Source of the DNA: a virus
Lineage: Duplodnaviria > Heunggongvirae > Uroviricota > Caudoviricetes
Strand: one strand, 5' to 3'
Virus record (IMG/VR): IMGVR_UViG_2778261165_000021
DNA: 33,405 nucleotides
A model generated the notes under the pieces. That model worked only from the letters and a program-made list of their open reading frames with translations. It did not search any database and had not been told where the DNA came from. Below are positions 4,090-33,405 of the stretch, piece by piece (position 1 is the stretch's first letter; every line of letters begins with the position of its first letter). Position numbers and translations under genes: made by a program.

Positions 4090-4180
4090 GAAACCAGAAC
4101 ATGCACACACAAAAAAACCGCTTGCCATGCCGCAATCGGTCAGGTTACATTTCCGCTGCACCTCATAAAACGGGTGCCGG

Positions 4181-4366
4181 GATTCTCAACCCGATACAGA
4201 GCAAAGCGCATAACCGCGCCAGCGGTTTTTTTGTGCGTACTGTATTGCCACGTCTTTTTCGCGTCAGAATTATGGCGGGGCGTACGGGGCCGACTTCGGT
4301 CGGGCCGGATTCTTTGCTCTCCGGTGTTGAGAACCCTGTACGTCTCGCCACCCCGAGATTCTCAAC
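4181..4366. repeat. GATTCTCAAC direct repeat (4181-4190, 4357-4366) with inverted partner GTTGAGAA (4325-4332)
   Basis: Read directly in a roughly 320-bp non-coding stretch; the inverted pair can form an 8-bp stem around a 26-nt loop. Confidence 0.5.
4212..4232 (+). terminator. Candidate rho-independent terminator
   Basis: AACCGC-GCCA-GCGGTT stem-loop followed immediately by a T7 run; about 120 nt downstream of the 3790..4089 stop. Confidence 0.4.
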
Positions 4367-13780: not shown

Positions 13781-13934
13781 TGCTCCCCCTGAGTAATTAC
13801 AGGAAGATTACCCGCGCGCGAAACTGTTCTCCTTAACCCCCTGTTCTGGCCGTTTTCTTACAACAAAAGCCCTTTGTATCAGCCTGTTACGCTTTGCCAT
13901 CATGACTGAAGAACCAGTCAGAGGGGCAAAAACT
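13781..13934. promoter_or_regulatory. Divergent late promoter region (P-Q leftward, O-N-M rightward)
   Basis: 154-bp spacer between divergent P and O start codons. Assigned by position; no exact TGT-N12-ACA activator site found. Confidence 0.4.
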
Positions 13935-14771
13935 ATGACTAATGAAAAAAAGACATCCCGCAAAAAGTTTCGCGTGGCTGTCTCCGGTGTAACGGCAGAC
14001 GGGCGCGAAATCAACGGCGACATGCTGAAAGCTGCCGCCACCAGTTATAACCCGTCCGTTTATGGTGCACGTGTAAATATTGAGCACATCCTGTCACCAC
14101 TCCCCGGTAGCGAGTTTTCCGCTATGGGCGATGTTGTGGGATTGAGCACCGAAGACATAACCGATGGCCCGCTGGCAGGTCGCACGGCGCTGTATGCCGA
14201 AATTGAGCCGACCGCTCGCATGATGTCCCTGCTTAACGATGGTAAAAAAATTTACTCCAGTATTGAGCTGGAACCACGGTCAACCATCACGGGAGGCCCT
14301 TACCTGCGTGGGCTGGCAATGACCGACACCCCTGCCAGCCTGGGCACGGAACGTCTGGCCTTTGCGGCACAACAACGTATGCAACTGATGACATTCAACT
14401 GTCAGCAGGGAGACGTGGCGATGTTTACCGCCGCTATGGAGTCAGAACTTATCGAACTCACCGAACAACGTCAGGAAGAAGGCACCCAGTGGTTTAACCG
14501 CGTTATGGGGATTATTGGCCGTGGCCGCAAAGCGGATGACGCCAGTTTCTCCCGTATTCAGGAAGCGGTGGAAGGTGTCGCAACGTCACAGGCCGACATT
14601 ATCGACCGTTTTAATGTGCTGGAAACCCGCCATCAGCAGGACAGCCAGAAAATCACTTTACTGACCACAGAGCTGGCAGCACTGAAGGAAAAACTGCGCA
14701 CGCAGGACGGCGATCCGCAGAACCGGTTCACCGCAACGGGCGCAGCCTCCGACCAGCTGGCTGACTTCTGA
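13935..14771 (+). CDS. O: Capsid scaffolding protein (P2 O-like)
   Basis: ATG 13935 with GAGGGG RBS (track ORF 13902). FRVAVSGVTADGREINGDMLKAAATSYNP and later segments parallel P2 gpO as recalled. Confidence 0.85.
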   Translation: MTNEKKTSRKKFRVAVSGVTADGREINGDMLKAAATSYNPSVYGARVNIEHILSPLPGSEFSAMGDVVGLSTEDITDGPLAGRTALYAEIEPTARMMSLLNDGKKIYSSIELEPRSTITGGPYLRGLAMTDTPASLGTERLAFAAQQRMQLMTFNCQQGDVAMFTAAMESELIELTEQRQEEGTQWFNRVMGIIGRGRKADDASFSRIQEAVEGVATSQADIIDRFNVLETRHQQDSQKITLLTTELAALKEKLRTQDGDPQNRFTATGAASDQLADF

Positions 14772-21666: not shown

Positions 21667-22267
21667 TTCGTTGTTACCACCATCAGCCAGCAATTTCATG
21701 CGTTGTGCCGAAGCCGTCGGAACACGCATTACAGACATTCCGGTAGACCTCAACACGCTGTGGTCGCCGGACACCTGCCCGGTGCATCTGCTGCCTTATC
21801 TCGCCTGGGCGTTTTCCGTTGACCGCTGGGATCGCAACTGGCCGGAAGAGACAAAGCGACAGGTGATTCGTGATGCATGGCTGATACACCGACACAAAGG
21901 GACCATCAGCGCACTGCGAAGAGCCGTGGAGCCTCTCGGCTACCTGATTGAAGTAAAGGAGTGGTGGCAACTCAACGAGGAGCCGGGAACATTTCGCATT
22001 GTTGTCGGAGTACTTGATCAGGGCATCACCGATGAAATGTATCAGGAACTTGAGCGCCTTATTGCGGATGCAAAACCAGTAAGTCGCCATCTGACGGGGC
22101 TGGCGATCAGCCTGAGTGTGAACGGAAAGATTTTCGTTGGTACGGGATGCTATCACGGCGATGCCCTGACGGTTTATCCCTACACCCCGGAGTCCATTAT
22201 TGTCGAAGGGGATTATTTCCCTGCCCCAGCCATTCATTTAATTGATAATCTGAGAGTAAACGCATGA
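21659..22267 (+). CDS. I: Baseplate protein I
   Basis: ATG 21659 overlapping J 3' end (track ORF 21626); position matches P2 gpI. Confidence 0.8.
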   Translation: MSNSLLPPSASNFMRCAEAVGTRITDIPVDLNTLWSPDTCPVHLLPYLAWAFSVDRWDRNWPEETKRQVIRDAWLIHRHKGTISALRRAVEPLGYLIEVKEWWQLNEEPGTFRIVVGVLDQGITDEMYQELERLIADAKPVSRHLTGLAISLSVNGKIFVGTGCYHGDALTVYPYTPESIIVEGDYFPAPAIHLIDNLRVNA

Positions 22268-23850
22268 CAGTGAAATACTACGCCATTCTGACTAATCAGG
22301 GCGCGGCACGACTGGCTAACGCGACGATGCTCGGCAGTAAGCTGAATCTGACGCAAATGGCCGTTGGTGATGCAAATGGTGTGTTACCAACACCAGACCC
22401 TGCACAAACAAAACTGATTAACCAGAAACGCATTGCACCGCTGAATCTTCTGAGTGTTGACCCTAACAATCAGAGCCAGATTATTGCGGAGCAAATCATC
22501 CCTGAAAACGAGGGAGGATTCTGGATCCGTGAGATTGGTCTTTATGATGATGAAGGTGTACTCATTGCGGTGGCAAACTGCCCGGAAACGTACAAACCGC
22601 AGTTGCAGGAAGGCAGTGGACGCACCCAGACTATCCGCATGATTCTGGTTGTCACGAACACCGAAGCCATCACGCTGAAAATCGACCCGTCTGTGGTTCT
22701 GGCAACCCGCAAATATGTGGATGATAAAATATCAGAGCACGAACAGTCACGACGTCACCCGGACGCCTCGCTGACCGTAAAAGGTTTTACTCAGTTAAGC
22801 AGTGCAATTAACAGTGAATCAGAAACACTGGCCGCAACACCGAAAGCGGTTAAGGCTGCATATGACCTGGCTAACGAGAAATATACTGCCCAGAACGCCA
22901 CCACTACACAAAAAGGGATTGTTCAGCTCAGTAGCGCCACGAACAGCACGTCTGAAACATTGGCAGCGACACCAAAAGCTGTTAAGGCGGTAATGGATGA
23001 AACGAACAAGAAAGCACCATTAAACAGCCCGGCACTGACCGGAACGCCAACAACACCAACAGCGCCACAGGGGACTAATAGTACCCAGATCGCAAGCACG
23101 GCTTTCGTTATGGCCGCGATTGCCGCACTTGTAGATTCGTCACCTGATGCACTGAACACGCTGAACGAACTGGCTGCGGCGCTGGGCAATGACCCGAATT
23201 TTGCGACCACCATGACTAACGCGCTTGCGGGTAAGCAACCGAAGGATGCCACCCTGACGGCGCTGGCGGAGCTTGCTACATCAGCAGATAAACTCCCATA
23301 TTTTACAGGGGCAGATCGTGCCGCGTTAACCGCGTTGACAAGTGTTGGACGTGCCATTCTTGGTAAAACCAGCACTCAGGGCGTTCTTGATTACCTTGGT
23401 TTGGGAGAAGGCTCAGCATTACCTGTTGGGGTGCCTGTTCCGTGGCCTTCAGCCACTCCGCCAACAGGCTGGTTGAAATGCAATGGTGCGGCTTTTTCTG
23501 CTGAAGAATACCCGGAACTGGCAAAGGCTTACCCGACAAATAAATTGCCTGATTTACGCGGTGAATTTATTCGTGGATGGGATGATGGGCGCGGGGTAGA
23601 CCCGTCAAGAAATCTTGGTTCATCACAGACAGACCAGCTGCAAAACCACGGGCACAGTAACATCCGCATGTCGTACACTGGTGCATTCGGTGGCTCCGGC
23701 GCGCTACCCGATGGCGGGAACACACGATCTGGCGATGGTGATTTGGTTGGTCCTGTATCATCAACCAATTTTGCAGGCGGTCAGCCTCGCGTTGGTGCAG
23801 AGACACGGCCGCGCAACGTCGCATTTAACTATATCGTGAGGGCAGCCTGA
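22264..23850 (+). CDS. H: Tail fibre protein H (constant N-terminal part plus currently expressed variable C-terminal part)
   Basis: 528 aa; N-terminus MTVKYYAILTNQGAARLANA typical of P2 gpH. A hix-like crossover site lies in-frame at 23384-23409, so codons after about 23397 belong to the invertible segment. Confidence 0.85.
   Translation: MTVKYYAILTNQGAARLANATMLGSKLNLTQMAVGDANGVLPTPDPAQTKLINQKRIAPLNLLSVDPNNQSQIIAEQIIPENEGGFWIREIGLYDDEGVLIAVANCPETYKPQLQEGSGRTQTIRMILVVTNTEAITLKIDPSVVLATRKYVDDKISEHEQSRRHPDASLTVKGFTQLSSAINSESETLAATPKAVKAAYDLANEKYTAQNATTTQKGIVQLSSATNSTSETLAATPKAVKAVMDETNKKAPLNSPALTGTPTTPTAPQGTNSTQIASTAFVMAAIAALVDSSPDALNTLNELAAALGNDPNFATTMTNALAGKQPKDATLTALAELATSADKLPYFTGADRAALTALTSVGRAILGKTSTQGVLDYLGLGEGSALPVGVPVPWPSATPPTGWLKCNGAAFSAEEYPELAKAYPTNKLPDLRGEFIRGWDDGRGVDPSRNLGSSQTDQLQNHGHSNIRMSYTGAFGGSGALPDGGNTRSGDGDLVGPVSSTNFAGGQPRVGAETRPRNVAFNYIVRAA
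22792..22990 (+). repeat. In-frame tandem duplication within H
   Basis: QLSSAINSESETLAATPKAVKA... and QLSSATNSTSETLAATPKAVKA... about 44 codons apart; nucleotide copies diverged at synonymous positions. Confidence 0.5.
23384..23409. other. hix/gix-like recombination site (left inverted repeat)
   Basis: TTCTTGATTACC-TT-GGTTTGGGAGAA; matches the Hin/Gin site architecture (two 12-bp half-sites around a 2-bp core). Inner half-site and core match the inverted partner at 25212-25237. Confidence 0.6.
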
Positions 23851-24452
23851 TGAATAAAGCCGTATTAAATAACGAACTCATTGCCATAAAAGCGGGAGAC
23901 ATTACCATTTATAATTATGATGGTGAAACGCGGGAATATATTTCCACATCAACTGAATATCTTGCGGTTGGCGTCGGTATACCGGCATGTTCTTGTTTAG
24001 ATGCACCAGTTACACATAAAGCTGGTTATGCAATCTGCCGTTCTGCAGATTTTAACTCATGGGAATATGTGCCAGACCATCGCGGTGAAATCATCTATAG
24101 CACCGAAACAGGAGAATCGAAAGAAATCACAGCTCCGGGTGATTACCCTGAAAATACAACCACTATCGCCCCGTTAACGCCATATGATAAATGGGATGGT
24201 GAGAAATGGGTGACGGATACCGAGGCACAACATAGCGCCGCAGTAGACGCGGCAGAAGCACAGCGCCAGTCGCTGATTGATGCTGCTATGGCTTCCATCA
24301 GTCTGATTCAACTGAAATTGCAGGCCGGACGTAAACTGACGCAGGCAGAAACAACCCGGCTTAACGCTGTGCTGGATTACATTGACGCGGTGGCGGCAAC
24401 AGATACCAGCACCGCGCCGGATGTCATCTGGCCTGAACTGCCGGAGGCGTAG
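23850..24452 (+). CDS. G: Tail fibre assembly protein (P2 G-like)
   Basis: 200 aa, ATG overlapping H stop; C-terminal DVIWPELPEA motif shared with the oppositely oriented paralogue. Confidence 0.8.
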   Translation: MNKAVLNNELIAIKAGDITIYNYDGETREYISTSTEYLAVGVGIPACSCLDAPVTHKAGYAICRSADFNSWEYVPDHRGEIIYSTETGESKEITAPGDYPENTTTIAPLTPYDKWDGEKWVTDTEAQHSAAVDAAEAQRQSLIDAAMASISLIQLKLQAGRKLTQAETTRLNAVLDYIDAVAATDTSTAPDVIWPELPEA

Positions 24453-24864
24453 GCCATTCAATATCTGGCGCACCGGAAGTATCGACCAGTTCCAGTGCGT
24501 CCAGATAATCCAGCCACAAATTATATTGCGCCAGTTCCTCACCTTTCAGGCGACCAATCGCCGCTTTACCAGGCCATTGCTTACTGTTTATGTATTCGTT
24601 GACCTGATTAATCAATTGCTGCTTTTCCAGTTCGGCTGCGGCAATTTGTTCCTCATGAGTTGGCGGTGGAATATCAATCCATGCAGGCATTCCGTCGATG
24701 ACACCTCTGTATTTTCCTTCTGGTGCTTCCTTCATAAATTCGGCGGCAACAGTGTCGTCAATTTCGATTCCATCACCGGGCCATTCGCCGGATTCCTGAT
24801 AAGCGATTTTAAGCTCCACAGGGAAAAACGCATTTTTCTCGGCACTGAAAATATATTTCTGCAT
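24424..24864 (-). CDS. Alternative tail fibre assembly protein (inverted-orientation partner)
   Basis: 146 aa on minus strand inside the invertible segment; C-terminus DIEWPTPPAVQAR parallels the plus-strand tfa. 3' ends of the two tfa genes overlap by 29 bp. Confidence 0.75.
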   Translation of the reverse strand: MQKYIFSAEKNAFFPVELKIAYQESGEWPGDGIEIDDTVAAEFMKEAPEGKYRGVIDGMPAWIDIPPPTHEEQIAAAELEKQQLINQVNEYINSKQWPGKAAIGRLKGEELAQYNLWLDYLDALELVDTSGAPDIEWPTPPAVQAR

Positions 24865-24866
24865 TT

Positions 24867-25224
24867 CTACCGTCCTATCGAAATATAACTGAATCTGTAT
24901 TGCTGTGAGATATCACTGGTTGCCACACGCCACGCTGAATTACTGATATGTTCAAAATTTACAGACAAAACCTGCGGGGCAGGATTCGACGGGTCTGACT
25001 GAACGGCATCAGACATAACACTGACTGAAACCATCGGCTGATTAGGGAATGGTATAGGGAAGTGTCCACTGATAAAGCGGGTCGTGTTTCCTGAAAAAGT
25101 GCCAAACTGAACAATATATCCACCTGGTAGCCTGAACCATCCCGAACCAGAAGCGAATGCTCCCATATCCGGTATCTGATTATCTCCTGTGCCCACATCC
25201 CTTTTCGCCGCTTCTCCTAAACCA
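24867..25224 (-). CDS. Alternative tail-fibre C-terminal cassette (promoterless; would fuse to H after inversion)
   Basis: Minus-strand frame open across the right hix-like site; codons GLGE at the site match GLGE at the left site in H, so inversion would join the H N-terminus to this variable domain. Confidence 0.65.
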
Positions 25225-25237
25225 ACGTTTGTGAAAA
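25212..25237. other. hix/gix-like recombination site (right inverted repeat)
   Basis: TTCTCCTAAACC-AA-CGTTTGTGAAAA; reverse complement shares the TT core and GGTTTAGGAGAA half-site with the left site. Lies 55 bp upstream of the invertase start. Confidence 0.6.
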
Positions 25238-25292
25238 TGCAGAGATAACGGGTAACTGGCATCATCTCCGGTTTTTATTCAGGGGGATGCTC

Positions 25293-25892
25293 ATGCTTAT
25301 TGGCTATGTACGCGTGTCAACAAATGACCAGAACACGGAATTGCAGCGTAACGCGCTGGAGTGCGCAGGATGTGAACTGATTTTTGAAGATAAAATCAGC
25401 GGAACGAAATCAGCCAGACCGGGATTGAAAAAACTGCTCAGAACGCTATCAGAAGGAGATACGCTGGTTGTCTGGAAGCTGGACAGGCTGGGCAGGAGTA
25501 TGAAACACCTGATCACGCTTATTGAGGAATTGCGGGAAAAAGGTGTTAATTTCCGTAGTCTGACGGACAGCATTGACACATCAACACCCATGGGGCGTTT
25601 CTTTTTTCACGTCATGGGAGCTTTAGCCGAAATGGAACGTGAATTAATTGTAGAGCGTACACTGGCCGGGCTGGCAGCAGCACGCGCACAAGGACGCATT
25701 GGCGGACGTCGCCCGAAGTTGACAAAAGAACAACACGAGCAAATAGCGAGGCTGATTAAAAACGGTCATGACAGGAAACAACTGGCGATCATTTACGACA
25801 TCGGCATATCGACGATTTATCGTTATCACCCTGTAGGCGATATACAGGCTGAAGAAACAACCAGGCAGACTCAGGAAAATGAAAACCGCTAA
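25293..25892 (+). CDS. Serine DNA invertase (Hin/Gin/Pin/Cin family)
   Basis: MLIGYVRVSTNDQN catalytic-serine N-terminus, resolvase core, C-terminal HTH (GISTIYRY). AGGGGG RBS 7 nt upstream of ATG 25293 (track start 25287). Confidence 0.9.
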   Translation: MLIGYVRVSTNDQNTELQRNALECAGCELIFEDKISGTKSARPGLKKLLRTLSEGDTLVVWKLDRLGRSMKHLITLIEELREKGVNFRSLTDSIDTSTPMGRFFFHVMGALAEMERELIVERTLAGLAAARAQGRIGGRRPKLTKEQHEQIARLIKNGHDRKQLAIIYDIGISTIYRYHPVGDIQAEETTRQTQENENR

Positions 25893-25911
25893 TCTGACCA
25901 TTAGCGGTTTT
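25882..25911. terminator. Bidirectional hairpin terminator between convergent invertase and U genes
   Basis: 12-bp stem AAAACCGCTAAT / ATTAGCGGTTTT with 6-nt loop; T-rich on both flanks; overlaps the invertase stop codon. Confidence 0.5.
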
Positions 25912-25918
25912 GCGTTAA

Positions 25919-26413
25919 TCAAAACAGCCCTTTAACGGAGCTGGCCGCGCTGTTAAGGGATGATGTGACCTTATCTTTGAAGCCGGACAGCATATCACTG
26001 AACGATGAGGATTGCAGGCGCTCCCGCAAATCCTCATCACAGCGTTCAAGAGTCAGTGAAAATTCTATCTTTTTCGCCTTACCGTAGCGATCAAACTCGG
26101 AGCGGGTCGTATTCGTTCCGGTCAGGACATACATGCCGTAAATCTGCCCGACACCATCAATCAGAGGCCAGGGGCGTCCTGTATATGCCTGCGTGGTCAG
26201 CAACGAAAGCGACACTTCGCCACCTGTAATTTCAGGATAAAGCACACCAGAAAGAACGATGCGATCATCGCCTGCCCCGATATACTGCCAGCTTGCTGAA
26301 CGGTTAACGCGTTCATTTTTCACATGCCGCCAGCTTTTGTTTTGCTGTAACTGCTGATGCGGCAACGTGCGCAGCTCAAAAACAAACATGCCGTAGATCA
26401 TCATCATGGCCAT
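25919..26413 (-). CDS. U: Tail protein U
   Basis: 164 aa; MAMMMIYGMFVFELRT, IYGMYVL and KIEFSLTLERCDE parallel P2 gpU as recalled. Confidence 0.8.
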   Translation of the reverse strand: MAMMMIYGMFVFELRTLPHQQLQQNKSWRHVKNERVNRSASWQYIGAGDDRIVLSGVLYPEITGGEVSLSLLTTQAYTGRPWPLIDGVGQIYGMYVLTGTNTTRSEFDRYGKAKKIEFSLTLERCDEDLRERLQSSSFSDMLSGFKDKVTSSLNSAASSVKGLF

Positions 26414-26419
26414 GACTCC

Positions 26420-29227
26420 TCAATCTTTATCGTAAAAACTGCCACGCCCGGCACGGGCGCGCCGTTCCATTTCTGCCCTGACCATTTCACCGACCAGTTT
26501 CGCCAGTTCGCGGGGATTCTGCGTAACAACGTTATGCAGATGAACATGAATTTCACCACCAAATCCGGAGGCAACAGGCTCCCGGTTACGGGAAGTTACA
26601 GGAACTGATGCCACTGGAGATCGTATGGCCTCCGCCACCGGGCGGGAGCTGGCCGCAACAACAGGGACCAGCGCCGGAGGCAGCGGAGCCGGGACCACGG
26701 GGGTGATATTAATTGCGGGGGCAGGCTTACTGACCTGTGCAATCTTCCGCTCCTGCCACTCCCCACGAACAGCAAGTGCGCGGGGCAAGTTCTTAAAGAC
26801 AATATCGCCGGGGCCAATGCGTTTTTTCGTCTCATCAACCAGCTTACCTGTGTTATCAGCAATTTTGCTGAGTCTGCGTAGCGTCCCGGTATTGCTGTCT
26901 GTGAGCGGTTTGTTGTCTTTGGGTTTATCACCTCCGGTGCCATTGCCATTTTCCACAGGCTTCGGCGGATTGATTTTCGCCAGGTCCCCCTGAAGTAAGG
27001 CAACCTTGTCCTGAAGAATGGCCGCACGCTGTGCGTCTTCGATTTTCTTGCGCGCCCTTTCCGCTTCATCCGGAAGGACGCCAAGTTTTTCAAGTATCCA
27101 CGCCAGCGTATCCAGTAGCATTTTTGCAGGTGTCAGAACAAGTTGTAACGCACCGCCAAGAACGTTACCGAATACCTCGCCAGCACTGGTACATTTATCC
27201 AGCGTTTCCTTGCTGGACTCCATCGGTGACAACAGCGATTTAAACCAGTTAAACACCTGGCTGATCCCGCTTCCGATTGCGTCAAAAACAGGACCAAACC
27301 GTTCAAAGGTTTCGCGCAACGGGGTCAGTCTTTCCATAATCCCACTGAACACCCCGGCATAAAACGCCTTGATGGGTTCCCAGTATTTCCAGATGAGAAC
27401 CGCCGCAGCCACAAACGCAGCAGCAATCAACCCGACCGGACTGAACAGCGCCCCGATAGCACCTCCCAGCAAAGAAACGGAACCCGTCACCATTCCCCAT
27501 AGTGCTGGCAGGACCCTGACAGCATTCATTGATCCGGTCAGGAGAGAAAAACCAAGACGCAGTTTTGCCAGCGGGCCAGCAAGCACACCAATAGCCAGCG
27601 ACAACGAGCCAACCGTTGCAGTCATTGCCAGCAACGCACCGCCTGCAATCAGTAGCTGGCGCGTCAGTGCGGGATGGGCCTGCGCCAGCGCCGTCACCTT
27701 TGAGACCACTCGCGTGAGCCACTGCGTGACAGAACGCAGCGGACCGTCAATCAGATCTGCAATGCGGATGCGCAACCCTTCCCATGCACTGCTGAGTGAT
27801 TTCAGATCGCCGTCAAGGTTGTTGGCCATAACCTTTGCCGTGCGTTCAGCCTCACCGCGCGCGCCTTCAAGTTCTTTTCTCAGTTTGGGTAAGGAACCGT
27901 CACCCGCTGCATCAACGAGCGCCATAAACGATGTGAAAGCCTCTTCTCCGGCAATGTCCTTAAAGAACGATACCCGGTCAACTTCCCCGTATTTGCGGGT
28001 GGCTTTATAAAGGTCGGCCAGCACATCCTCCATCGGGCGCATTTTGCCCCCGGCATCCGAGACGGACACGCCCAGCTCTTTCAGAGCTTCTGCCGCCGCC
28101 TTTGGCGGTGATGCCAGACGAGCCAGGCTGGTACGCATTGCCGTCCCGGCATCACTCCCTCTGATGCCCATATTCGCCAGCACGCCAGCCATCGCTGCGG
28201 CCTGCTCCAGCGATATTCCCAGCTTACCCGCTACCGGACCTGCATATTTCATGGTTTCGCCCAGTGCGCGAAGGTCAGTGTTGGTTCGGGTAAACGCTGC
28301 GGTGAGTGTGTCACCGACCCGGTCCATCTGGTCAGCAGAAAGGCCGAACTGCGTCAGGATATTTGAGCCAATATCCGCCGTCTCGCCGAGATCCATACCG
28401 CCAGCTGTTGCCATGCTCAGCACGCCGGGAAGCGCAGCCTGAATGGCCTGCGGTGTGAAGCCAGCCATTGCAAGAAATGCCTGCCCACTGGCGGCATCGC
28501 CTGCAGTGAACTGCGTTTCAGAGCCAAGTTTTAACGCCTGTTCACGCAGCGCCTTAAACTGCGGGCTGTTCTGGTCGATTCGCGTCAGCGCCTGAACGCG
28601 GGACATCTCTTTCCCGAACCCGATCGCAGGCTGCAAAAAACGCCCGGCAGCATAGCCGCCCGCCGCTACCGCACCAATTGCCAGCGCACCACCTGTTTTC
28701 AGTTTTCCCGCGGTTTCCTGCGCGCGCGAATACCGCTCACGCGCCCGCGTTACACGCGCAAGCGCCTGCCGTTCGCGTTCAAGCTGGTTGTTGTACTGTT
28801 CGGTGCGTCTGATGGCCTGCTGGATGGTGTTATCGCTGCCTGTCAGGGAAATGCCGTGGCGTTTCAGCTCTCCGCCAAGCTCCCGCATTTTCTGAATTTC
28901 CCGTGTGCGCGATTCATTCAGGCGTTCAAGCCGGGTGCTTAACTGCTGCATCAGCTTTTGTTGTTTTTCGCTGAGCACTGTCCCCGTGCGTTGTAACTGA
29001 TTAAGGGCGTTAAGCTGGCGTCGTGCTTTCACGATGCCCGCATCCGCTTTACTGACAGCGTCACGGGCGCGCTCAAATGAACGCGCCTGACGCTCGAGAT
29101 TTTTGATCGCCCCCTGCGTTCGCTGGATGGAGTCACCAAACTGCCCCATCAGGCGGCGGGCGTTTTCGGCAGGCTGGGTCAGCCTGTCAACGGCGCTGAA
29201 AGCGACCCGGATATCAAGAGTCTTCAT
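26420..29227 (-). CDS. T: Tail tape-measure protein (P2 T-like)
   Basis: About 935 aa from ATG at 29227 (track ORF to 29263); long coiled-coil N-terminal half, Gly/Ala-rich hydrophobic middle. Start overlaps the E' stop. Confidence 0.85.
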   Translation of the reverse strand: MKTLDIRVAFSAVDRLTQPAENARRLMGQFGDSIQRTQGAIKNLERQARSFERARDAVSKADAGIVKARRQLNALNQLQRTGTVLSEKQQKLMQQLSTRLERLNESRTREIQKMRELGGELKRHGISLTGSDNTIQQAIRRTEQYNNQLERERQALARVTRARERYSRAQETAGKLKTGGALAIGAVAAGGYAAGRFLQPAIGFGKEMSRVQALTRIDQNSPQFKALREQALKLGSETQFTAGDAASGQAFLAMAGFTPQAIQAALPGVLSMATAGGMDLGETADIGSNILTQFGLSADQMDRVGDTLTAAFTRTNTDLRALGETMKYAGPVAGKLGISLEQAAAMAGVLANMGIRGSDAGTAMRTSLARLASPPKAAAEALKELGVSVSDAGGKMRPMEDVLADLYKATRKYGEVDRVSFFKDIAGEEAFTSFMALVDAAGDGSLPKLRKELEGARGEAERTAKVMANNLDGDLKSLSSAWEGLRIRIADLIDGPLRSVTQWLTRVVSKVTALAQAHPALTRQLLIAGGALLAMTATVGSLSLAIGVLAGPLAKLRLGFSLLTGSMNAVRVLPALWGMVTGSVSLLGGAIGALFSPVGLIAAAFVAAAVLIWKYWEPIKAFYAGVFSGIMERLTPLRETFERFGPVFDAIGSGISQVFNWFKSLLSPMESSKETLDKCTSAGEVFGNVLGGALQLVLTPAKMLLDTLAWILEKLGVLPDEAERARKKIEDAQRAAILQDKVALLQGDLAKINPPKPVENGNGTGGDKPKDNKPLTDSNTGTLRRLSKIADNTGKLVDETKKRIGPGDIVFKNLPRALAVRGEWQERKIAQVSKPAPAINITPVVPAPLPPALVPVVAASSRPVAEAIRSPVASVPVTSRNREPVASGFGGEIHVHLHNVVTQNPRELAKLVGEMVRAEMERRARAGRGSFYDKD

Positions 29228-29752
29228 TGTCTGCATTCCCGCTGCGAAGTGCCGCCCGCTCACGCCAGCTAACCACTTCGCCGGGCGTCATCATGAAGAT
29301 TTCGGCGGGCGACCAGTTAAAAATGGCGGCGATATCTGCCACCAGATCTTCGATGTGCTCAAAGCACACCAGGGTGATTACGCTGCCGTCTCCTGCACGC
29401 TCTTCGCGCCAGAGTCTGGCTCGCTCATAAAATTTACAGCCACAGCGCACAACTGAATAAAATCGCGTGACGACATTTTTTTAATCATCACTTCATCCAG
29501 TCGTGGCGAGGTCACGCGAGGCAACAGCGTGAACATGGTATCCGCTTTCAGATTCAGCACATCAGACAGCGACAGACCACGCAGGGATCCAGCCTGTTCA
29601 ATAGCCCCGGTGATCTCCACATACGTGATTTTTTCGCCACCACGCTCAATTGGTCGGGTCAGTTTTACGCCACGTTCGACAGCCATATCCTCACCTGCCG
29701 TCACATCATCCACCACGGTGTTATTCCGGGTTTCAGTATCGATGTCTTTCAT
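29214..29752 (-). CDS. Tail assembly chaperone E+E' (predicted -1 frameshift product)
   Basis: The -1 frame relative to E is open from the A7 run (plus-strand T7 at 29476-29482) down to the stop at 29214; extension contains FYERARLWREERAGDGSVITLVCFEH, recalled from P2 E'. Slip position inferred. Confidence 0.55.
29378..29752 (-). CDS. E: Tail assembly chaperone E
   Basis: 124-aa ORF with AAGGAG RBS upstream of ATG 29752; position between FII and T as in P2. Confidence 0.7.
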   Translation of the reverse strand: MKDIDTETRNNTVVDDVTAGEDMAVERGVKLTRPIERGGEKITYVEITGAIEQAGSLRGLSLSDVLNLKADTMFTLLPRVTSPRLDEVMIKKMSSRDFIQLCAVAVNFMSEPDSGAKSVQETAA

Positions 29753-29807
29753 CAGTTTTCTCCTTTTCAGTCAGAGGCGACGCACTGCGCCGCCTGCATA
29801 TTACTTA

Positions 29808-30320
29808 TCAGCCAAGCCCGAGCGCGGAACGGATACGGTCAGGCACAATGTCCTTGCCGTCCTTCCGGTAGATGTGGTTCAACAGGTCGATTTCCCACAG
29901 CGGGCGATCGTTAACGCTCAGCTTGTAGTAGGTGTTTTTGACAGCGTAAGTGTGTGATGTGGCTTCGCCCTGTTTGGCTTCCCCCATATCAATTTCCGTC
30001 ACACGTCCGCGCATCTCGATTTCATACAGATCGCTTTCTGCATCGGTGTAGTATTCACCCGCAAAACGCAGCAGCGTGCCGTCAATCGTGCCGCCATATT
30101 TAAGGAACAGCGCACGAACAGCTCCCCCCATGACAAAACTCGCATCAAGCGCGGAGTCGTCCAGACCGAGATCAATACTTACCGCCCCCATCATGCCACC
30201 ACCACGATAGCTGTCGGTTTTGCGCGTCAGTTTGGGCGGCGTGACGGATGTCACTTTACCCACTTCGTTTTCACCATCCACAAACAACGTAAAAAAGCGA
30301 AGATGTTTTGGTACAGCCAT
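29808..30320 (-). CDS. FII: Tail tube protein (P2 FII-like)
   Basis: 170 aa; LTRKTDSYRGGGMMGAVSIDLGLDD and RGRVTEIDMGEAKQGE blocks parallel P2 gpFII as recalled. Confidence 0.9.
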   Translation of the reverse strand: MAVPKHLRFFTLFVDGENEVGKVTSVTPPKLTRKTDSYRGGGMMGAVSIDLGLDDSALDASFVMGGAVRALFLKYGGTIDGTLLRFAGEYYTDAESDLYEIEMRGRVTEIDMGEAKQGEATSHTYAVKNTYYKLSVNDRPLWEIDLLNHIYRKDGKDIVPDRIRSALGLG

Positions 30321-31504
30321 CAGGCACCTCCCAGCACCGCAAATGCGGGACCAAAGAATTCATCAGTAAACGTCTGGTAAAGCTCCATGTCTTCCAGCGG
30401 GGGAACAGGCGTATATTTGTAGCGAATACGCACACGTCCCTGACGTAAATTCGTGGTGCCGTTATCCACCACGTCATACCAGCACTCCGCACCAATCAGT
30501 TTCCCGGCAGTAACCAGCGAATCCAGTTTTGCCCTGATGGCGCTGATAACATCCTTCACGTTCGCAGGTGTCAGTGGACTGTCGATGGTTTCAAACTGCG
30601 CTTCCGCAATTGAATCAGCCAGCACCTGTGCGGTTCGGGTATACACCTCAAAGATGTAGGCGTTCGTTTCCGGTGTGCGGTTGCCCCAGAAGCGGAACCC
30701 GTTGCGACGAATAATGGTCGTGATTTCTTTGTTGTTGAGGCTGTTGGCATCGCTGTCTTCGGCCTGCAACGACCAGAACACATGCCTGGACATCCCCAGC
30801 ACATTTTTAACCGGAACGTTGGACAGCGATTTGTGCCAGCCCTGTTCATGGTCAATGTACGCACGAAGGCCGCACGCATAGGCAGGCGCGGGGAACGTTT
30901 CGTTTTCGCCACTTTTCGGGTTGTAGGCGATGAAGTCCGGCCATAAGAGCATCACTTCACGTTCGTTGAATTTCTGGCGGTAGGTAATCGCTTCAGCCAT
31001 CGTGTTACAGCCGTGACATGAGGCATACACAAATGCGCGCAGTTTACCCGCAATCACGCACAGGGATTTTGTCACCGCCTCCGTGTCCAGCTCCGGCGCG
31101 GCCAGAATACGCGGACGGTATCCGATGCTTTCATCCTGCTCTGCAACAAGCAGCGCATACATCCCCGTATAGCTGCCGTCATCCTCAGAACCACCGATAA
31201 CCAGTTGATCCTGCGTCTTTTCGTCTTCTTCTTTGTGTTCAGCCACGCGAACGACGATCACCTTTGTGCTCACCTGGTCTGCGATGGCCTTAAGCGCACG
31301 ATAAAGCGTCCCCGTTGTCCCGCATTTCCCCAGCACGTCATTGACGCGGGTCAGCAGTGTGGGCTTGTTCAGCGGGAACAGCTTCGCGTCCGCATCATCC
31401 GCCGTTGCCACGATACCGATAACGCTGGAATCAACATCGTTAATCGCTGTTACCAGGTCGGTATTTTCCGTAACACGGGCACCATGAAAACGAGTTTCAC
31501 TCAT
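30320..31504 (-). CDS. FI: Contractile tail sheath protein (P2 FI-like)
   Basis: 394 aa; FPLNKP, KLRAF, WPDF, EQGWHKSLSNV, IRRNGFRFWGNRT, YTRTAQV and YTPVPPLE blocks parallel P2 gpFI as recalled. Confidence 0.9.
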   Translation of the reverse strand: MSETRFHGARVTENTDLVTAINDVDSSVIGIVATADDADAKLFPLNKPTLLTRVNDVLGKCGTTGTLYRALKAIADQVSTKVIVVRVAEHKEEDEKTQDQLVIGGSEDDGSYTGMYALLVAEQDESIGYRPRILAAPELDTEAVTKSLCVIAGKLRAFVYASCHGCNTMAEAITYRQKFNEREVMLLWPDFIAYNPKSGENETFPAPAYACGLRAYIDHEQGWHKSLSNVPVKNVLGMSRHVFWSLQAEDSDANSLNNKEITTIIRRNGFRFWGNRTPETNAYIFEVYTRTAQVLADSIAEAQFETIDSPLTPANVKDVISAIRAKLDSLVTAGKLIGAECWYDVVDNGTTNLRQGRVRIRYKYTPVPPLEDMELYQTFTDEFFGPAFAVLGGA

Positions 31505-31661
31505 AGCTTCAGCCCCTTGTATCCGTTAAATGATTCAGCAACAATCATCACCCACCACGCGCGTAATCTCACCCCTGCGCTATTCTCCCGTCACGGCGAC
31601 AACAAAAAGCAGTAACCCACTCCGCACGCACATGCGACCATGCCGCACAGGGAGGGAACAG
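31505..31661. promoter_or_regulatory. Divergent promoter region between FI (leftward) and D (rightward)
   Basis: 157-bp spacer between divergent start codons; contains palindrome TGATTCAGCAACAATCA (31531-31547). Promoter assignment is by position only. Confidence 0.35.
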
Positions 31662-32771
31662 ATGACCGACACCACCATGCAATTGCTCAGTCAGGGCACA
31701 GACCCCGTGAAAATGCCGGATTTTGATATTCTCGCGGAGGGTAAAACGTTGTCAGGCGTGGCAGAGCGCCTGATGAGCCTGTCACTGACCGACAACCGGG
31801 GATTTGAGGCGGACCAGCTCACCATCACGCTGGATGATGCGGATGGTCAGTTGCAGCTACCGCTACGGGGCGCGCGCCTGACGGTTCTCATTGGCTGGAA
31901 GGGAGAACCGCTGACAGAAAAAGGCACTTACATTGTTGATGAAATCGCTCACGAAGGACCGCCGGACAGGCTGACTGTTTCAGCCAGAAGCGCAGATTTT
32001 CGGGATGAATTTAACGTTAAACGTGAGGTGTCCTGGCATGATGTGACCATTGAGCGTGTGGTATCCGCCATCGCTCATCGGTATGGTCTGAAACCGCAAA
32101 TCAGCGAAATGCTGATGGATATCGAAATCGACCACGCCGACCAGACCGAAGAAAGCGACATGTCCTTCCTTACGCGCATGGCGGAAATGCTGGGCGCAAT
32201 CACCACGGTAAAAAGCGGCAATCTGTTATTCATCATGCCAGGTGGTGGCGTGAACGCACAGGGCCAGCCGTTGCCCTCGTTCGCCATTACACGCAGCAGC
32301 GGCGATCGCCATCAGTTCCGTATTGCTGACCGCGAGGCTTATACGGGGGTACGCGCCTACTGGCTTGATCTTAATTACGGGAAAAAGAAAAAAGTCAGCG
32401 TAAAACGCCGTAAACCGCCAAAACCCAAAAAGGAGAAAAGCAGCAGCCGTGAAGGTGATTATATGGAAGGCGCGGAAGGCAATGTGTTTGTGTTACGCAA
32501 GACTTATCAGAACGAGCAGGCAGCAAGACGCGCAGCGGCGGCAAAGTGGCAGCAACTACAACGCGGAGCCGCAGCGTTCTCCATCACGCTGGCGCGTGGA
32601 CGTGCAGAACTCTACCCCGAAATGCATGGCACGGTAACAGGATTTAAAAGCGAGATTGATAATCAGGACTGGATCATTGCAAAAGCCGAGCACACCATTG
32701 ATAACAGTGGCTTTACCACGCAGCTTGAGCTTGAAGCAAAAATCCCGGAATGGATAGCAGAAACAGAATGA
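31662..32771 (+). CDS. D: Tail protein D
   Basis: About 369 aa from ATG 31662 with GGGAGGG RBS (track ORF 31530 has an implausible leader); position before ogr as in P2. Confidence 0.85.
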   Translation: MTDTTMQLLSQGTDPVKMPDFDILAEGKTLSGVAERLMSLSLTDNRGFEADQLTITLDDADGQLQLPLRGARLTVLIGWKGEPLTEKGTYIVDEIAHEGPPDRLTVSARSADFRDEFNVKREVSWHDVTIERVVSAIAHRYGLKPQISEMLMDIEIDHADQTEESDMSFLTRMAEMLGAITTVKSGNLLFIMPGGGVNAQGQPLPSFAITRSSGDRHQFRIADREAYTGVRAYWLDLNYGKKKKVSVKRRKPPKPKKEKSSSREGDYMEGAEGNVFVLRKTYQNEQAARRAAAAKWQQLQRGAAAFSITLARGRAELYPEMHGTVTGFKSEIDNQDWIIAKAEHTIDNSGFTTQLELEAKIPEWIAETE

Positions 32772-32813
32772 GCAACTTAGAATAGCAGCAGCACCACGTT
32801 AAGGGAGGTCGCT

Positions 32814-33074
32814 ATGTTCCGTTGTCCGCTTTGTGGCGCATCTGCCCGTATCCGCACCAGTCGTTCGGAAAATGATTCAAACACCGTACGGAAAAAATAT
32901 TACCAGTGTAACAACCTGGAATGCGGCATAAGTTTCTCAACACTGGAAGCTTTCCATAAATTCACATCGAAACACGCCCCCGGCGTTCACTCTTCAGAAG
33001 GTATCCCGTGGCATGAGTTGCCAGCTTCACACAGGGGAAACAATCAGATGAGTTTGCCTTTATCTCAGAATTAA
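32814..33074 (+). CDS. ogr: Late gene transcription activator (Ogr/Delta-type zinc finger)
   Basis: MFRCPLCGASARIRTSR...YYQCNNLECG C4 zinc-finger signature matching P2 Ogr; AGGGAGG RBS. Confidence 0.85.
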   Translation: MFRCPLCGASARIRTSRSENDSNTVRKKYYQCNNLECGISFSTLEAFHKFTSKHAPGVHSSEGIPWHELPASHRGNNQMSLPLSQN

Positions 33075-33264
33075 CAGGCAGAATTGCCGGAGTAACAAAA
33101 AAGCGATAGATTACGCGCGGGTGCCTTTCGGCTGATGGTCGGAGGGAATACCCGAAGGCCAGATGTGGAAAGGCCCCGGAAAACATTTCTGTTTAACCGA
33201 GGCCCTAACCGTCTAACCTTAGCAAGTGATAGGTTAGCGCCTCCCTGAAAAAGGAGCAAGCGCT

Positions 33265-33405
33265 ATGTCGCAAAAATCGCTTACGGCCATCACGTTCTGC
33301 GTGACGGCAATCCTCATCATCTGGATGCTGCACGGTTCGCTGTGCGAAATACGGATGAGCTTCTGGGGAGCGGAGTTTGCGGCGTTCTTACAGTGTAAGC
33401 AGTAA
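33265..33405 (+). CDS. Hok/Gef-family small membrane toxin (type I toxin-antitoxin)
   Basis: 46 aa: MSQKSLTAITFCVTAILIIWMLHGSLCEIRMSFWGAEFAAFLQCKQ. N-terminal TM helix, then conserved SLCE and (E)xAAF blocks as in Hok/HokA. AAGGAG RBS 8 nt upstream. Ends on the last base of the window. Confidence 0.6.
   Translation: MSQKSLTAITFCVTAILIIWMLHGSLCEIRMSFWGAEFAAFLQCKQ

Follow-up and report, generated by a model that had tools for sequence, protein, structure and literature searches.

The late region analysed here raises the question why the genes for tail sheath, tail tube and tape measure, which in P2 share one operon with D, are encoded against their neighbours. The window, i.e. the whole stretch of 33,405 nucleotides that was analysed (IMG/VR record IMGVR_UViG_2778261165_000021), comes from a P88-like prophage of the family Peduoviridae with Xuanwuvirus and Gemsvirus as nearest genera. 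A preliminary description of this DNA had placed H, G and an invertase on the plus strand, FI to U on the minus strand, and D and ogr again on the plus strand, and had proposed that an inversion separated D from its operon. The strands are confirmed by the ORF layout and family matches; the gene calls rest on ORF layout, PHROGs, Pfam and tblastn searches against P2 and 186:

22264-23850, plus strand, tail fibre gene H (ORF, PHROGs, tblastn)
23850-24452, plus strand, tail fibre assembly gene G (ORF, PHROGs)
24424-24864, minus strand, alternative tail-fibre assembly gene G' (ORF, PHROGs)
24867-25265, minus strand, alternative C-terminal cassette of H (ORF, PHROGs)
25287-25892, plus strand, serine DNA invertase of the Hin/Gin/Cin/Pin type (phrog_125, E 3e-100)
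25919-26413, minus strand, tail protein gpU (PHROGs, tblastn, Pfam PF06995)
26420-29227, minus strand, tape-measure protein gpT (ORF, PHROGs; likely ATG at 29227, longest ORF from 29263)
29214-29450, minus strand, E' extension in the -1 frame (Pfam Phage_P2_GpE, PF06528)
29378-29752, minus strand, gpE (ORF)
29808-30320, minus strand, tail tube protein gpFII (PHROGs, tblastn)
30320-31504, minus strand, tail sheath protein gpFI (PHROGs, tblastn)
31662-32771, plus strand, late control D protein/baseplate hub gpD (tblastn, Pfam Phage_GPD, PF05954)
32814-33074, plus strand, ogr-type zinc-finger late activator (Pfam Ogr_Delta, PF04606; Cys pattern CX2C...CX4C)

The P2-like late tail set of FI, FII, E/E', T, U and D together with an Ogr/Delta-type activator is thus complete (33-49% identity to P2 and 186 in tblastn), and the genes and their internal order are those of the P2 F operon (FI-FII-E-E'-T-U-D) and the 186 J operon. 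In P2 and 186, however, FI-FII-E-T-U-D-ogr are situated on one strand with D as last gene of the operon and co-oriented with H-G, whereas in the window FI to U is reversed and D is left outside the block next to ogr; a canonical F operon, in which FI to U share the strand of D and are co-oriented with V-G, is absent. The alignment with P2 and 186 gpD places the start of D at 31662, hence the FI/D spacer comprises 157 bp (31505-31661), as previously stated. A candidate slippery heptamer for E/E', A_AAT_TTT at 29435-29429, was read by eye as the putative frameshift site.

A flipped FI-U block is the ordinary and ancient arrangement in the P88-like clade, G(+), in some members invertase(+), U-T-E-FII-FI(-), D(+) ogr(+), to which the window conforms; it can be read directly from annotated reference genomes. 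The layout invertase(+) / U-T-E'-E-FII-FI(-) / D(+) / ogr(+) is identical in P88 and P88_4B11 (Xuanwuvirus), 500465-2 (Gemsvirus) and Citrobacter ΦSM, and the reference annotations of the first three give the same strands for the invertase, U to FI, and D. Differences from the window concern the cassettes for tail fibres and part of the cargo; in 500465-2, for instance, one more gene lies between D and ogr, and IS100 is present in some records. Salmonella SEN5 (Senquatrovirus), whose D is 63% identical, shares the inverted block and the divergent FI/D pair, but has no invertase and its convergent U directly follows G. These five phages belong to three ICTV genera, and P88 and ΦSM have been described as viable, plaque-forming phages (PMC5285337, PMC6456863). 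When region 22000-33405 was used as an 11.4-kb megablast query, both junctions were collinear in P88, P88_4B11, 500465-2, 520873, 503458, Shae_phiSM, PhiR44_2 and Chuche, with nucleotide identities to reference phages of 93-96% over 76-87% of the query.

The same picture emerged from larger samples. Among the 80 IMG/VR loci retrieved with the D protein, FI is on the minus and D on the plus strand in every one (80/80), i.e. wherever both genes are present. Of 5426 complete E. coli genomes, 1355, about a quarter, contain the FI/D junction without interruption, three of them with 100% identity. Species-representative prophages whose D is at least 61% identical to that of the window, which span more than 20 genera of Enterobacterales, are inverted without exception (51/51), while all representative loci with a D identity of 54% or less are canonical. 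The preliminary description had regarded the inversion as noteworthy unless close relatives routinely share the orientation, and they do so in P88, P88_4B11, 500465-2, SEN5 and all three larger samples; the part that holds is that D is separated from its operon relative to P2 and 186, not that this is a notable rearrangement of the present genome. The distribution across close relatives makes the inversion ordinary rather than private or recent, and since so many finished genomes contain the junction, the misassembly that had been considered is ruled out. Hence, a recent inversion restricted to the window genome, or an assembly error, as the cause of the broken F operon has virtually no probability left, since the one observation in its favour, the difference from P2 and 186, is outweighed by junctions that recur in isolated phages, in complete bacterial genomes and in all species-level relatives.

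As a discovery the layout counts for little, because it can be seen in the reference genomes of three or more ICTV genera and in roughly every fourth complete E. coli genome. It is useful as a synteny marker, by which the P88/SEN4-like clade can be told cleanly from P2/186-like phages. The inversion is unmentioned in the papers checked on P88, ΦSM, SEN4/5, Serratia PP4, Burkholderia P2-like phages and Xenorhabdus tailocins, and broader keyword searches yielded nothing of relevance. An assignment of the Xenorhabdus matches to xenorhabdicin tailocin loci was dropped, because the published variable region between sheath and tail-fibre genes suits the canonical layout.

A serine invertase gene adjoins the FI-U block, so the block might be regarded as a second invertible region that is switched by this enzyme. 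The window does contain an invertible segment with hix/gix-like crossover sites:

23384-23409, left crossover site TTCTTGATTACCTTGGTTTGGGAGAA, at which the homology to P2 H stops
25212-25237, right crossover site TTCTCCTAAACCAACGTTTGTGAAAA

These 26-bp inverted sites flank the tail-fibre segment only and not the FI-U block; the N-terminal 383 amino acids of gpH are 72% identical to P2 gpH. At the junctions of the FI-U block no hix-like site was found, the best match having 13-14 mismatches in 26 positions, and a search for an inverted repeat linking the two junctions was likewise negative. An FI-U block co-oriented with D was encountered in 0 of about 130 clade loci, and in many relatives of the same layout no invertase homologue is detectable beside U, where G is the last gene detected before U. 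The view that crossover sites are lacking at the junctions and that the resident invertase is not responsible is therefore upheld. Although the IMG/VR contig L080 carries a secondary inversion that begins at a hix-like site in H, switching of FI-U by the invertase is extremely improbable; the arrangement is fixed and does not rely on this enzyme.

Regarding its origin, neighbour-joining trees of D and of FI each unite the inverted loci in one clade, and the canonical order is kept in all P2/186-like loci as well as in phiCTX and a Mannheimia phage, which served as outgroups; together this points to a single old and fixed inversion. We consider it probable that FI-U was inverted together with its promoter pF in the ancestor of the whole clade, that a pair of divergent late promoters now shares one activator site, and that this state became fixed. 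The ancestor would have flipped FI-FII-E/E'-T-U along with the Ogr-dependent pF, with one inferred breakpoint immediately upstream of the pF activator site and the second between the genes U and D. As a result, U would now end opposite the tail-fibre module (or the invertase), with a terminator hairpin separating the two, and the dyad-symmetric activator site of pF (TGT-N12-ACA) would adjoin the 5' end of D. Intermediate genomes from which the breakpoints could be reconstructed were not found.

As phage genomes are mosaic, a reversed sheath-tube-tape-measure cassette from another contractile-tail element could also have entered the clade ancestor, and the U-side junction indeed differs among relatives. 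However, FI, FII, E, T and U are 33-47% identical to their P2 and 186 counterparts, comparable to the head genes and D with 35-49%; head and tail proteins taken together have diverged alike (33-55% in tblastn), which indicates that the FI-U block is no recent import. Furthermore, FI and D support the same clade, and the pF-type activator site has retained the P2 orientation and distance relative to FI. Replacement of the module is accordingly very unlikely, and the ancestral inversion of the resident genes remains the preferred explanation.

At the U-side junction, where invertase and U converge, a hairpin with a 12-bp stem had been reported, and it was found again:

25882-25911, both strands, hairpin AAAACCGCTAAT-ctgacc-ATTAGCGGTTTT with 12-bp stem and 6-nt loop, preceded by an A-run and followed by a T-run

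It folds on both strands with -16.9 and -17.6 kcal/mol (z-scores of -4.0 and -2.8), is followed by UUUU on one and UUUUCAUUUU on the other strand, and was also called by the terminator scan on the minus strand. A stable hairpin with a U-run on either strand is what characterizes bidirectional terminators, and the element is predicted to be an intrinsic terminator for both convergent genes.

At the other junction, the FI/D spacer holds the following elements:

31584-31601, Ogr-type activator site reading TGT-N12-AGA on the minus strand (centre 31592.5), which includes the small palindrome CCGTCACGG
31544-31549, minus strand, predicted -10 hexamer GATGAT of pF, the late promoter that reads leftward, with a predicted start at about 31537
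31636-31641, plus strand, predicted -10 hexamer GACCAT of a rightward late promoter for D, predicted start at about 31648, Shine-Dalgarno sequence GGGAGGG

The palindrome noticed earlier in the spacer is thus part of a conserved activator site, which reads TGT-N12-ACA in most relatives, the AGA of the window being one mismatch from consensus. P2 late promoters contain TGT-N12-ACA and depend on Ogr (PMC3931495). The Ogr/B-type site of P2 and 186 precedes the FI start by about 55 bp, and the window matches this orientation and spacing. The spacer shows the traits of Ogr/B/Delta-type promoters, i.e. a dyad about 55 bp upstream of the predicted start, here ending in AGA, a weak -10 and no good -35 element.

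Both -10-like hexamers are exactly 34 nt away from the edges of the activator site. Across 51 unique spacers, which come from related genomes and hence are not independent samples, TGT-N12-ACA or TGT-N12-AGA occurs in 47 and the exact TGT-N12-ACA in 29. At the 34-nt offset, nAnnAT is found on the FI side in 49/51 spacers and nAnnnT on the D side in 46/51, and hexamers at other offsets are almost absent. Canonical relatives have the hexamer at this offset on the FI side in 17/23 cases, on the distal side in 0/23. Three exact copies of the motif TTGTTGT-N12-AGA occur in the window, where 0.12 would be expected, and the P/O and FI/D spacers account for two of these. The third copy (14354-14375, inside gene O) was rejected as a promoter, because -10-like hexamers are missing at the required offsets. 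Perfect TGT-N12-ACA motifs at 1379, 10708 and 11447 lie outside the late intergenic regions, and the phage's own sites end in AGA.

The same geometry is found in the P2 promoter pair pP/pO (186 p12/pV), where one dyad TGT-N12-(A/C)CA lies between divergent genes, the -10 hexamers are 34 nt from each edge, and the distance from the site centre to either annotated start (3016 and 3127) is 55.5 bp. The pP/pO pair was mapped experimentally, whereas the FI/D pair is predicted and its site has AGA in place of ACA or CCA. With hexamers 34 nt from both edges, the site centre of the FI/D spacer would also be about 55.5 bp from the two predicted starts. Judged from these sequence features, D is most likely transcribed from a promoter of its own that depends on Ogr and uses the pF activator site. 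One site would then activate both pF, which reads leftward into FI to U, and a pD specific to the clade, which reads rightward into D and subsequently ogr. The spacer is a clearly delimited candidate for another divergent pair of promoters under Ogr control.

Alternatively, D might be transcribed from an early or constitutive promoter independent of Ogr, and the conserved elements on the D side of the spacer might have another role. The stricter nAnnAT on the D side (36/51) is less frequent than on the FI side, and a CGCGCGCG tract is conserved between the activator site and the D-side hexamer. However, a scan of the spacer for sigma-70 consensus promoters found none, the CGCGCG tract also occurs in the P promoter of the window, and the rigid 34-nt spacing, equal to that of P2 pP/pO, is kept down to 61% D identity. 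We regard an Ogr-independent D promoter as improbable, though less so than the replacement of the module.

Returning to an Ogr-dependent pD, we lean slightly towards a fission of the operon, in which the inversion placed the dyad site beside D, a -10 element arose at the mirror distance, and the F operon was split into FI-U and D-ogr with late control being kept. If true, such a fission, undescribed so far, would have been enabled by the symmetry of the activator site and would have created a second two-way Ogr-dependent promoter; moreover, ogr directly downstream of an Ogr-dependent promoter would imply positive feedback. Points against an Ogr-dependent pD in the window are the AGA mismatch of its site, the weakness of GACCAT as the hexamer on the D side, and a predicted D leader of only about 14 nt. 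Finally, gene callers should avoid extending D upstream across the spacer, as it is done in the annotation of 500465-2.

The window holds a complete P2-like prophage, bounded by int on the left and by ogr and a hok-like gene on the right, in which the tail genes U, T, E/E', FII and FI keep their operon order and all lie on the minus strand. Since the annotated genomes of P2 and 186 carry FI-FII-E-T-U-D-ogr on a single strand co-oriented with V-G, the block from FI to U is inverted relative to both, as the preliminary description had stated. Gene identities in this region were derived from an ORF map, PHROG and Pfam matches, and tblastn with P2 and 186 proteins:

1-1023, minus: int, left end of the prophage
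22264-23850, plus: H
23850-24452, plus: G
24424-25265, minus: alternative G'/H-C-terminal cassette
25287-25892, plus: serine invertase
25919-26413, minus: U
26420-29227, minus: T
29214-29752, minus: E/E'
29808-30320, minus: FII
30320-31504, minus: FI
31662-32771, plus: D, start set by alignment with gpD of P2 and 186
32814-33074, plus: ogr

An upstream ATG at 31530 was rejected as start of D because the gpD alignment places it at 31662, which gives the FI/D spacer the previously proposed length of 157 bp. The RefSeq annotation of phage 500465-2 (L003 10428-11669, corresponding to window 31530-32771) begins D at this upstream ATG (1242 nt), hence the whole FI/D control region would fall inside D; the alignment with P2 and 186 gpD supports a shorter gene of 1110 nt.

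The preliminary description implied a rearrangement in this genome and considered misassembly. The same orientation is, however, routine in relatives, the very outcome that it had named as a refutation, and 1355 of 5426 complete E. coli genomes carry the FI/D junction (31250-31910) unbroken, which rules out misassembly. Megablast of 22000-33405 gave single collinear alignments over both junctions (93-96% identity) with P88, P88_4B11, 500465-2, 520873, 503458, Citrobacter Shae_phiSM, PhiR44_2 and Chuche, all annotated with the same invertase(+), U to FI(-), D(+) layout. P88 is inducible and lytic (PMC5285337) and ΦSM, which is released spontaneously, is plaque-forming (PMC6456863), hence the inverted layout is functional. 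Salmonella phage SEN5 (Senquatrovirus) is likewise inverted. A search of IMG/VR with the D protein yielded 492 relatives; tblastn of the 80 loci listed put FI on the minus and D on the plus strand in every case where these genes are present, and in many of the loci no invertase homologue adjoining U was detectable. One genome per bacterial species was also scanned with the gpD alignment as query. Among the 80 loci listed there, all 51 with a D at least 61% identical to that of the window are inverted, and every locus with a P2/186-like D (at most 54%) is canonical. The inverted loci occur in Salmonella, Edwardsiella, Serratia, Erwinia, Pantoea, Enterobacter, Kosakonia, Citrobacter, Klebsiella, Pectobacterium, Brenneria, Symbiopectobacterium, Xenorhabdus, Photorhabdus, Providencia, Morganella, Hafnia, Yersinia and others. 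A related prophage also lies on a 226-kb contig labelled as the Firmicute Vagococcus sp. WN89Y (NZ_JBQPOM010000071.1); its D, FI, T and U are 97-98% identical to the enterobacterial proteins of the window, and either contamination or a wrong label probably explains this.

Neighbour-joining trees of D and of FI both group the inverted loci in one clade, and the more distant phiCTX and a Mannheimia phage are, unlike the window, canonical, so that the inverted state is derived. The data are most simply read as a single old inversion that became fixed in a large, enterobacterial branch of the Peduoviridae; the feature is a real, ordinary, lineage-typical gene order and not a rearrangement of the window genome. 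A recent import of the block was rejected, because head and tail proteins of the window are equally far from P2/186 (33-55% identity). The block is also not a switching segment. The crossover sites of the invertase (23384-23409, the exact end of homology to P2 H, and 25212-25237) flank the tail-fibre cassette; nothing similar was found at the 25.9 kb and 31.5 kb junctions, in line with the earlier failure to find hix-like sites there, and no inverted repeat joins these junctions. Moreover, the block was never co-oriented with D among the clade loci examined, and many lack a detectable invertase by U. In one relative (L080, IMGVR_UViG_2654587728_000014) the stretch matching window 23396-27903, which runs from the hix-like site in H into the tape-measure gene T, is inverted relative to the window, so that T is broken; aberrant action of the invertase or an error of assembly may be the cause. 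In the second prophage of Salmonella enterica strain s1 (L120), D is only 63% but ogr 86% identical to those of the window, which suggests that sub-lineages of the inverted clade have exchanged the activator gene in mosaic fashion.

The observation itself is confirmed in every detail. The hairpin AAAACCGCTAAT/ATTAGCGGTTTT (25882-25911), which adjoins the 3' end of U, folds on both strands with U-runs following, and is a predicted terminator for both directions of transcription. A stable hairpin a short way past U is present in most relatives too, but its sequence varies between sub-lineages, consistent with a boundary at which cargo and tail fibres vary.

With the gene upstream of D on the opposite strand, D needs its own promoter, and no sigma-70 consensus promoter was found in the FI/D spacer. 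Alignment of the unique spacers of 51 diverged relatives revealed one common dyad, TGT-N12-ACA, which is the consensus for those P2 late promoters that depend on Ogr (PMC3931495). Of the 51 spacers, 29 have it without mismatch and 18 more, the window's included, read TGT-N12-AGA. On the FI side, 49/51 spacers have nAnnAT at a distance of exactly 34 nt from the edge of the site, and on the D side 46/51 have nAnnnT at exactly that distance from the other edge, with almost no hexamers at other offsets. The corresponding window elements are:

31549-31544, minus: FI-side hexamer GATGAT, at the 34-nt offset
31584-31601, read on the minus strand: Ogr-type site TGT-N12-AGA, from the spacer alignment
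31636-31641, plus: D-side hexamer GACCAT, at the 34-nt offset

These hexamers predict starts near 31537 and 31648, both at a distance of 55.5 bp from the centre of the site. Among canonical P2/186-like prophages, the FI-side hexamer occurs at this offset in 17/23 and a distal-side hexamer in 0/23. The divergent pP/pO of P2 resemble the FI/D spacer, with a hexamer 34 nt away on either side and annotated starts (3016, 3127) each 55.5 bp from one TGT-N12-CCA centre. The 34-nt geometry and both controls thus point to a pF site that would have moved together with the block and, in the inverted clade, would serve two divergent late promoters, leftward pF and a new, rightward pD. Transcripts from the predicted pD probably read into ogr, since the D-ogr gap of 42 bp has no obvious hairpin; in the P2 annotation, likewise, a single terminator is assigned to the ogr transcript and to the F operon.

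The extended motif TTGTTGT-N12-AGA has three exact copies in the window (0.12 expected), one of them in the FI/D spacer and one in the window's own P/O spacer. The third, at 14354-14375 (-) inside the scaffold gene O, lacks -10-like hexamers at the 34-nt offsets and may act as a decoy or have arisen by chance. The longest ORF of O begins at 13902 and the predicted pO start lies near 13909-13910; the true start is probably at 13935, where an in-frame ATG comes with a good Shine-Dalgarno sequence (GAGGGG).

The inversion is uncommented in the open papers on P88, ΦSM, SEN4/5 and Serratia PP4, and it is already plain in the deposited annotations of these phages. Rearranged late operons have been described in other P2-like phages, e.g. 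Smp131 (PMC3931495). Our sole addition is a modest one, the conserved geometry, which points to a predicted Ogr-dependent promoter that FI and D would share and that would serve both directions.

A small hydrophobic ORF (MSQKSLTAITFCVTAILIIWMLHGSLCEIR...) closes the window at 33266-33405 (+), and its P88 counterpart is annotated as MokW-like host killing protein of the hok/gef family. In the early region, Rfam gathering-level matches were obtained for isrK (4158-4232, +, 62.8 bits) and C4 antisense RNA (4268-4355, +, 78.5 bits), together a P1/P7-type antisense immunity RNA pair within a P2-like prophage.
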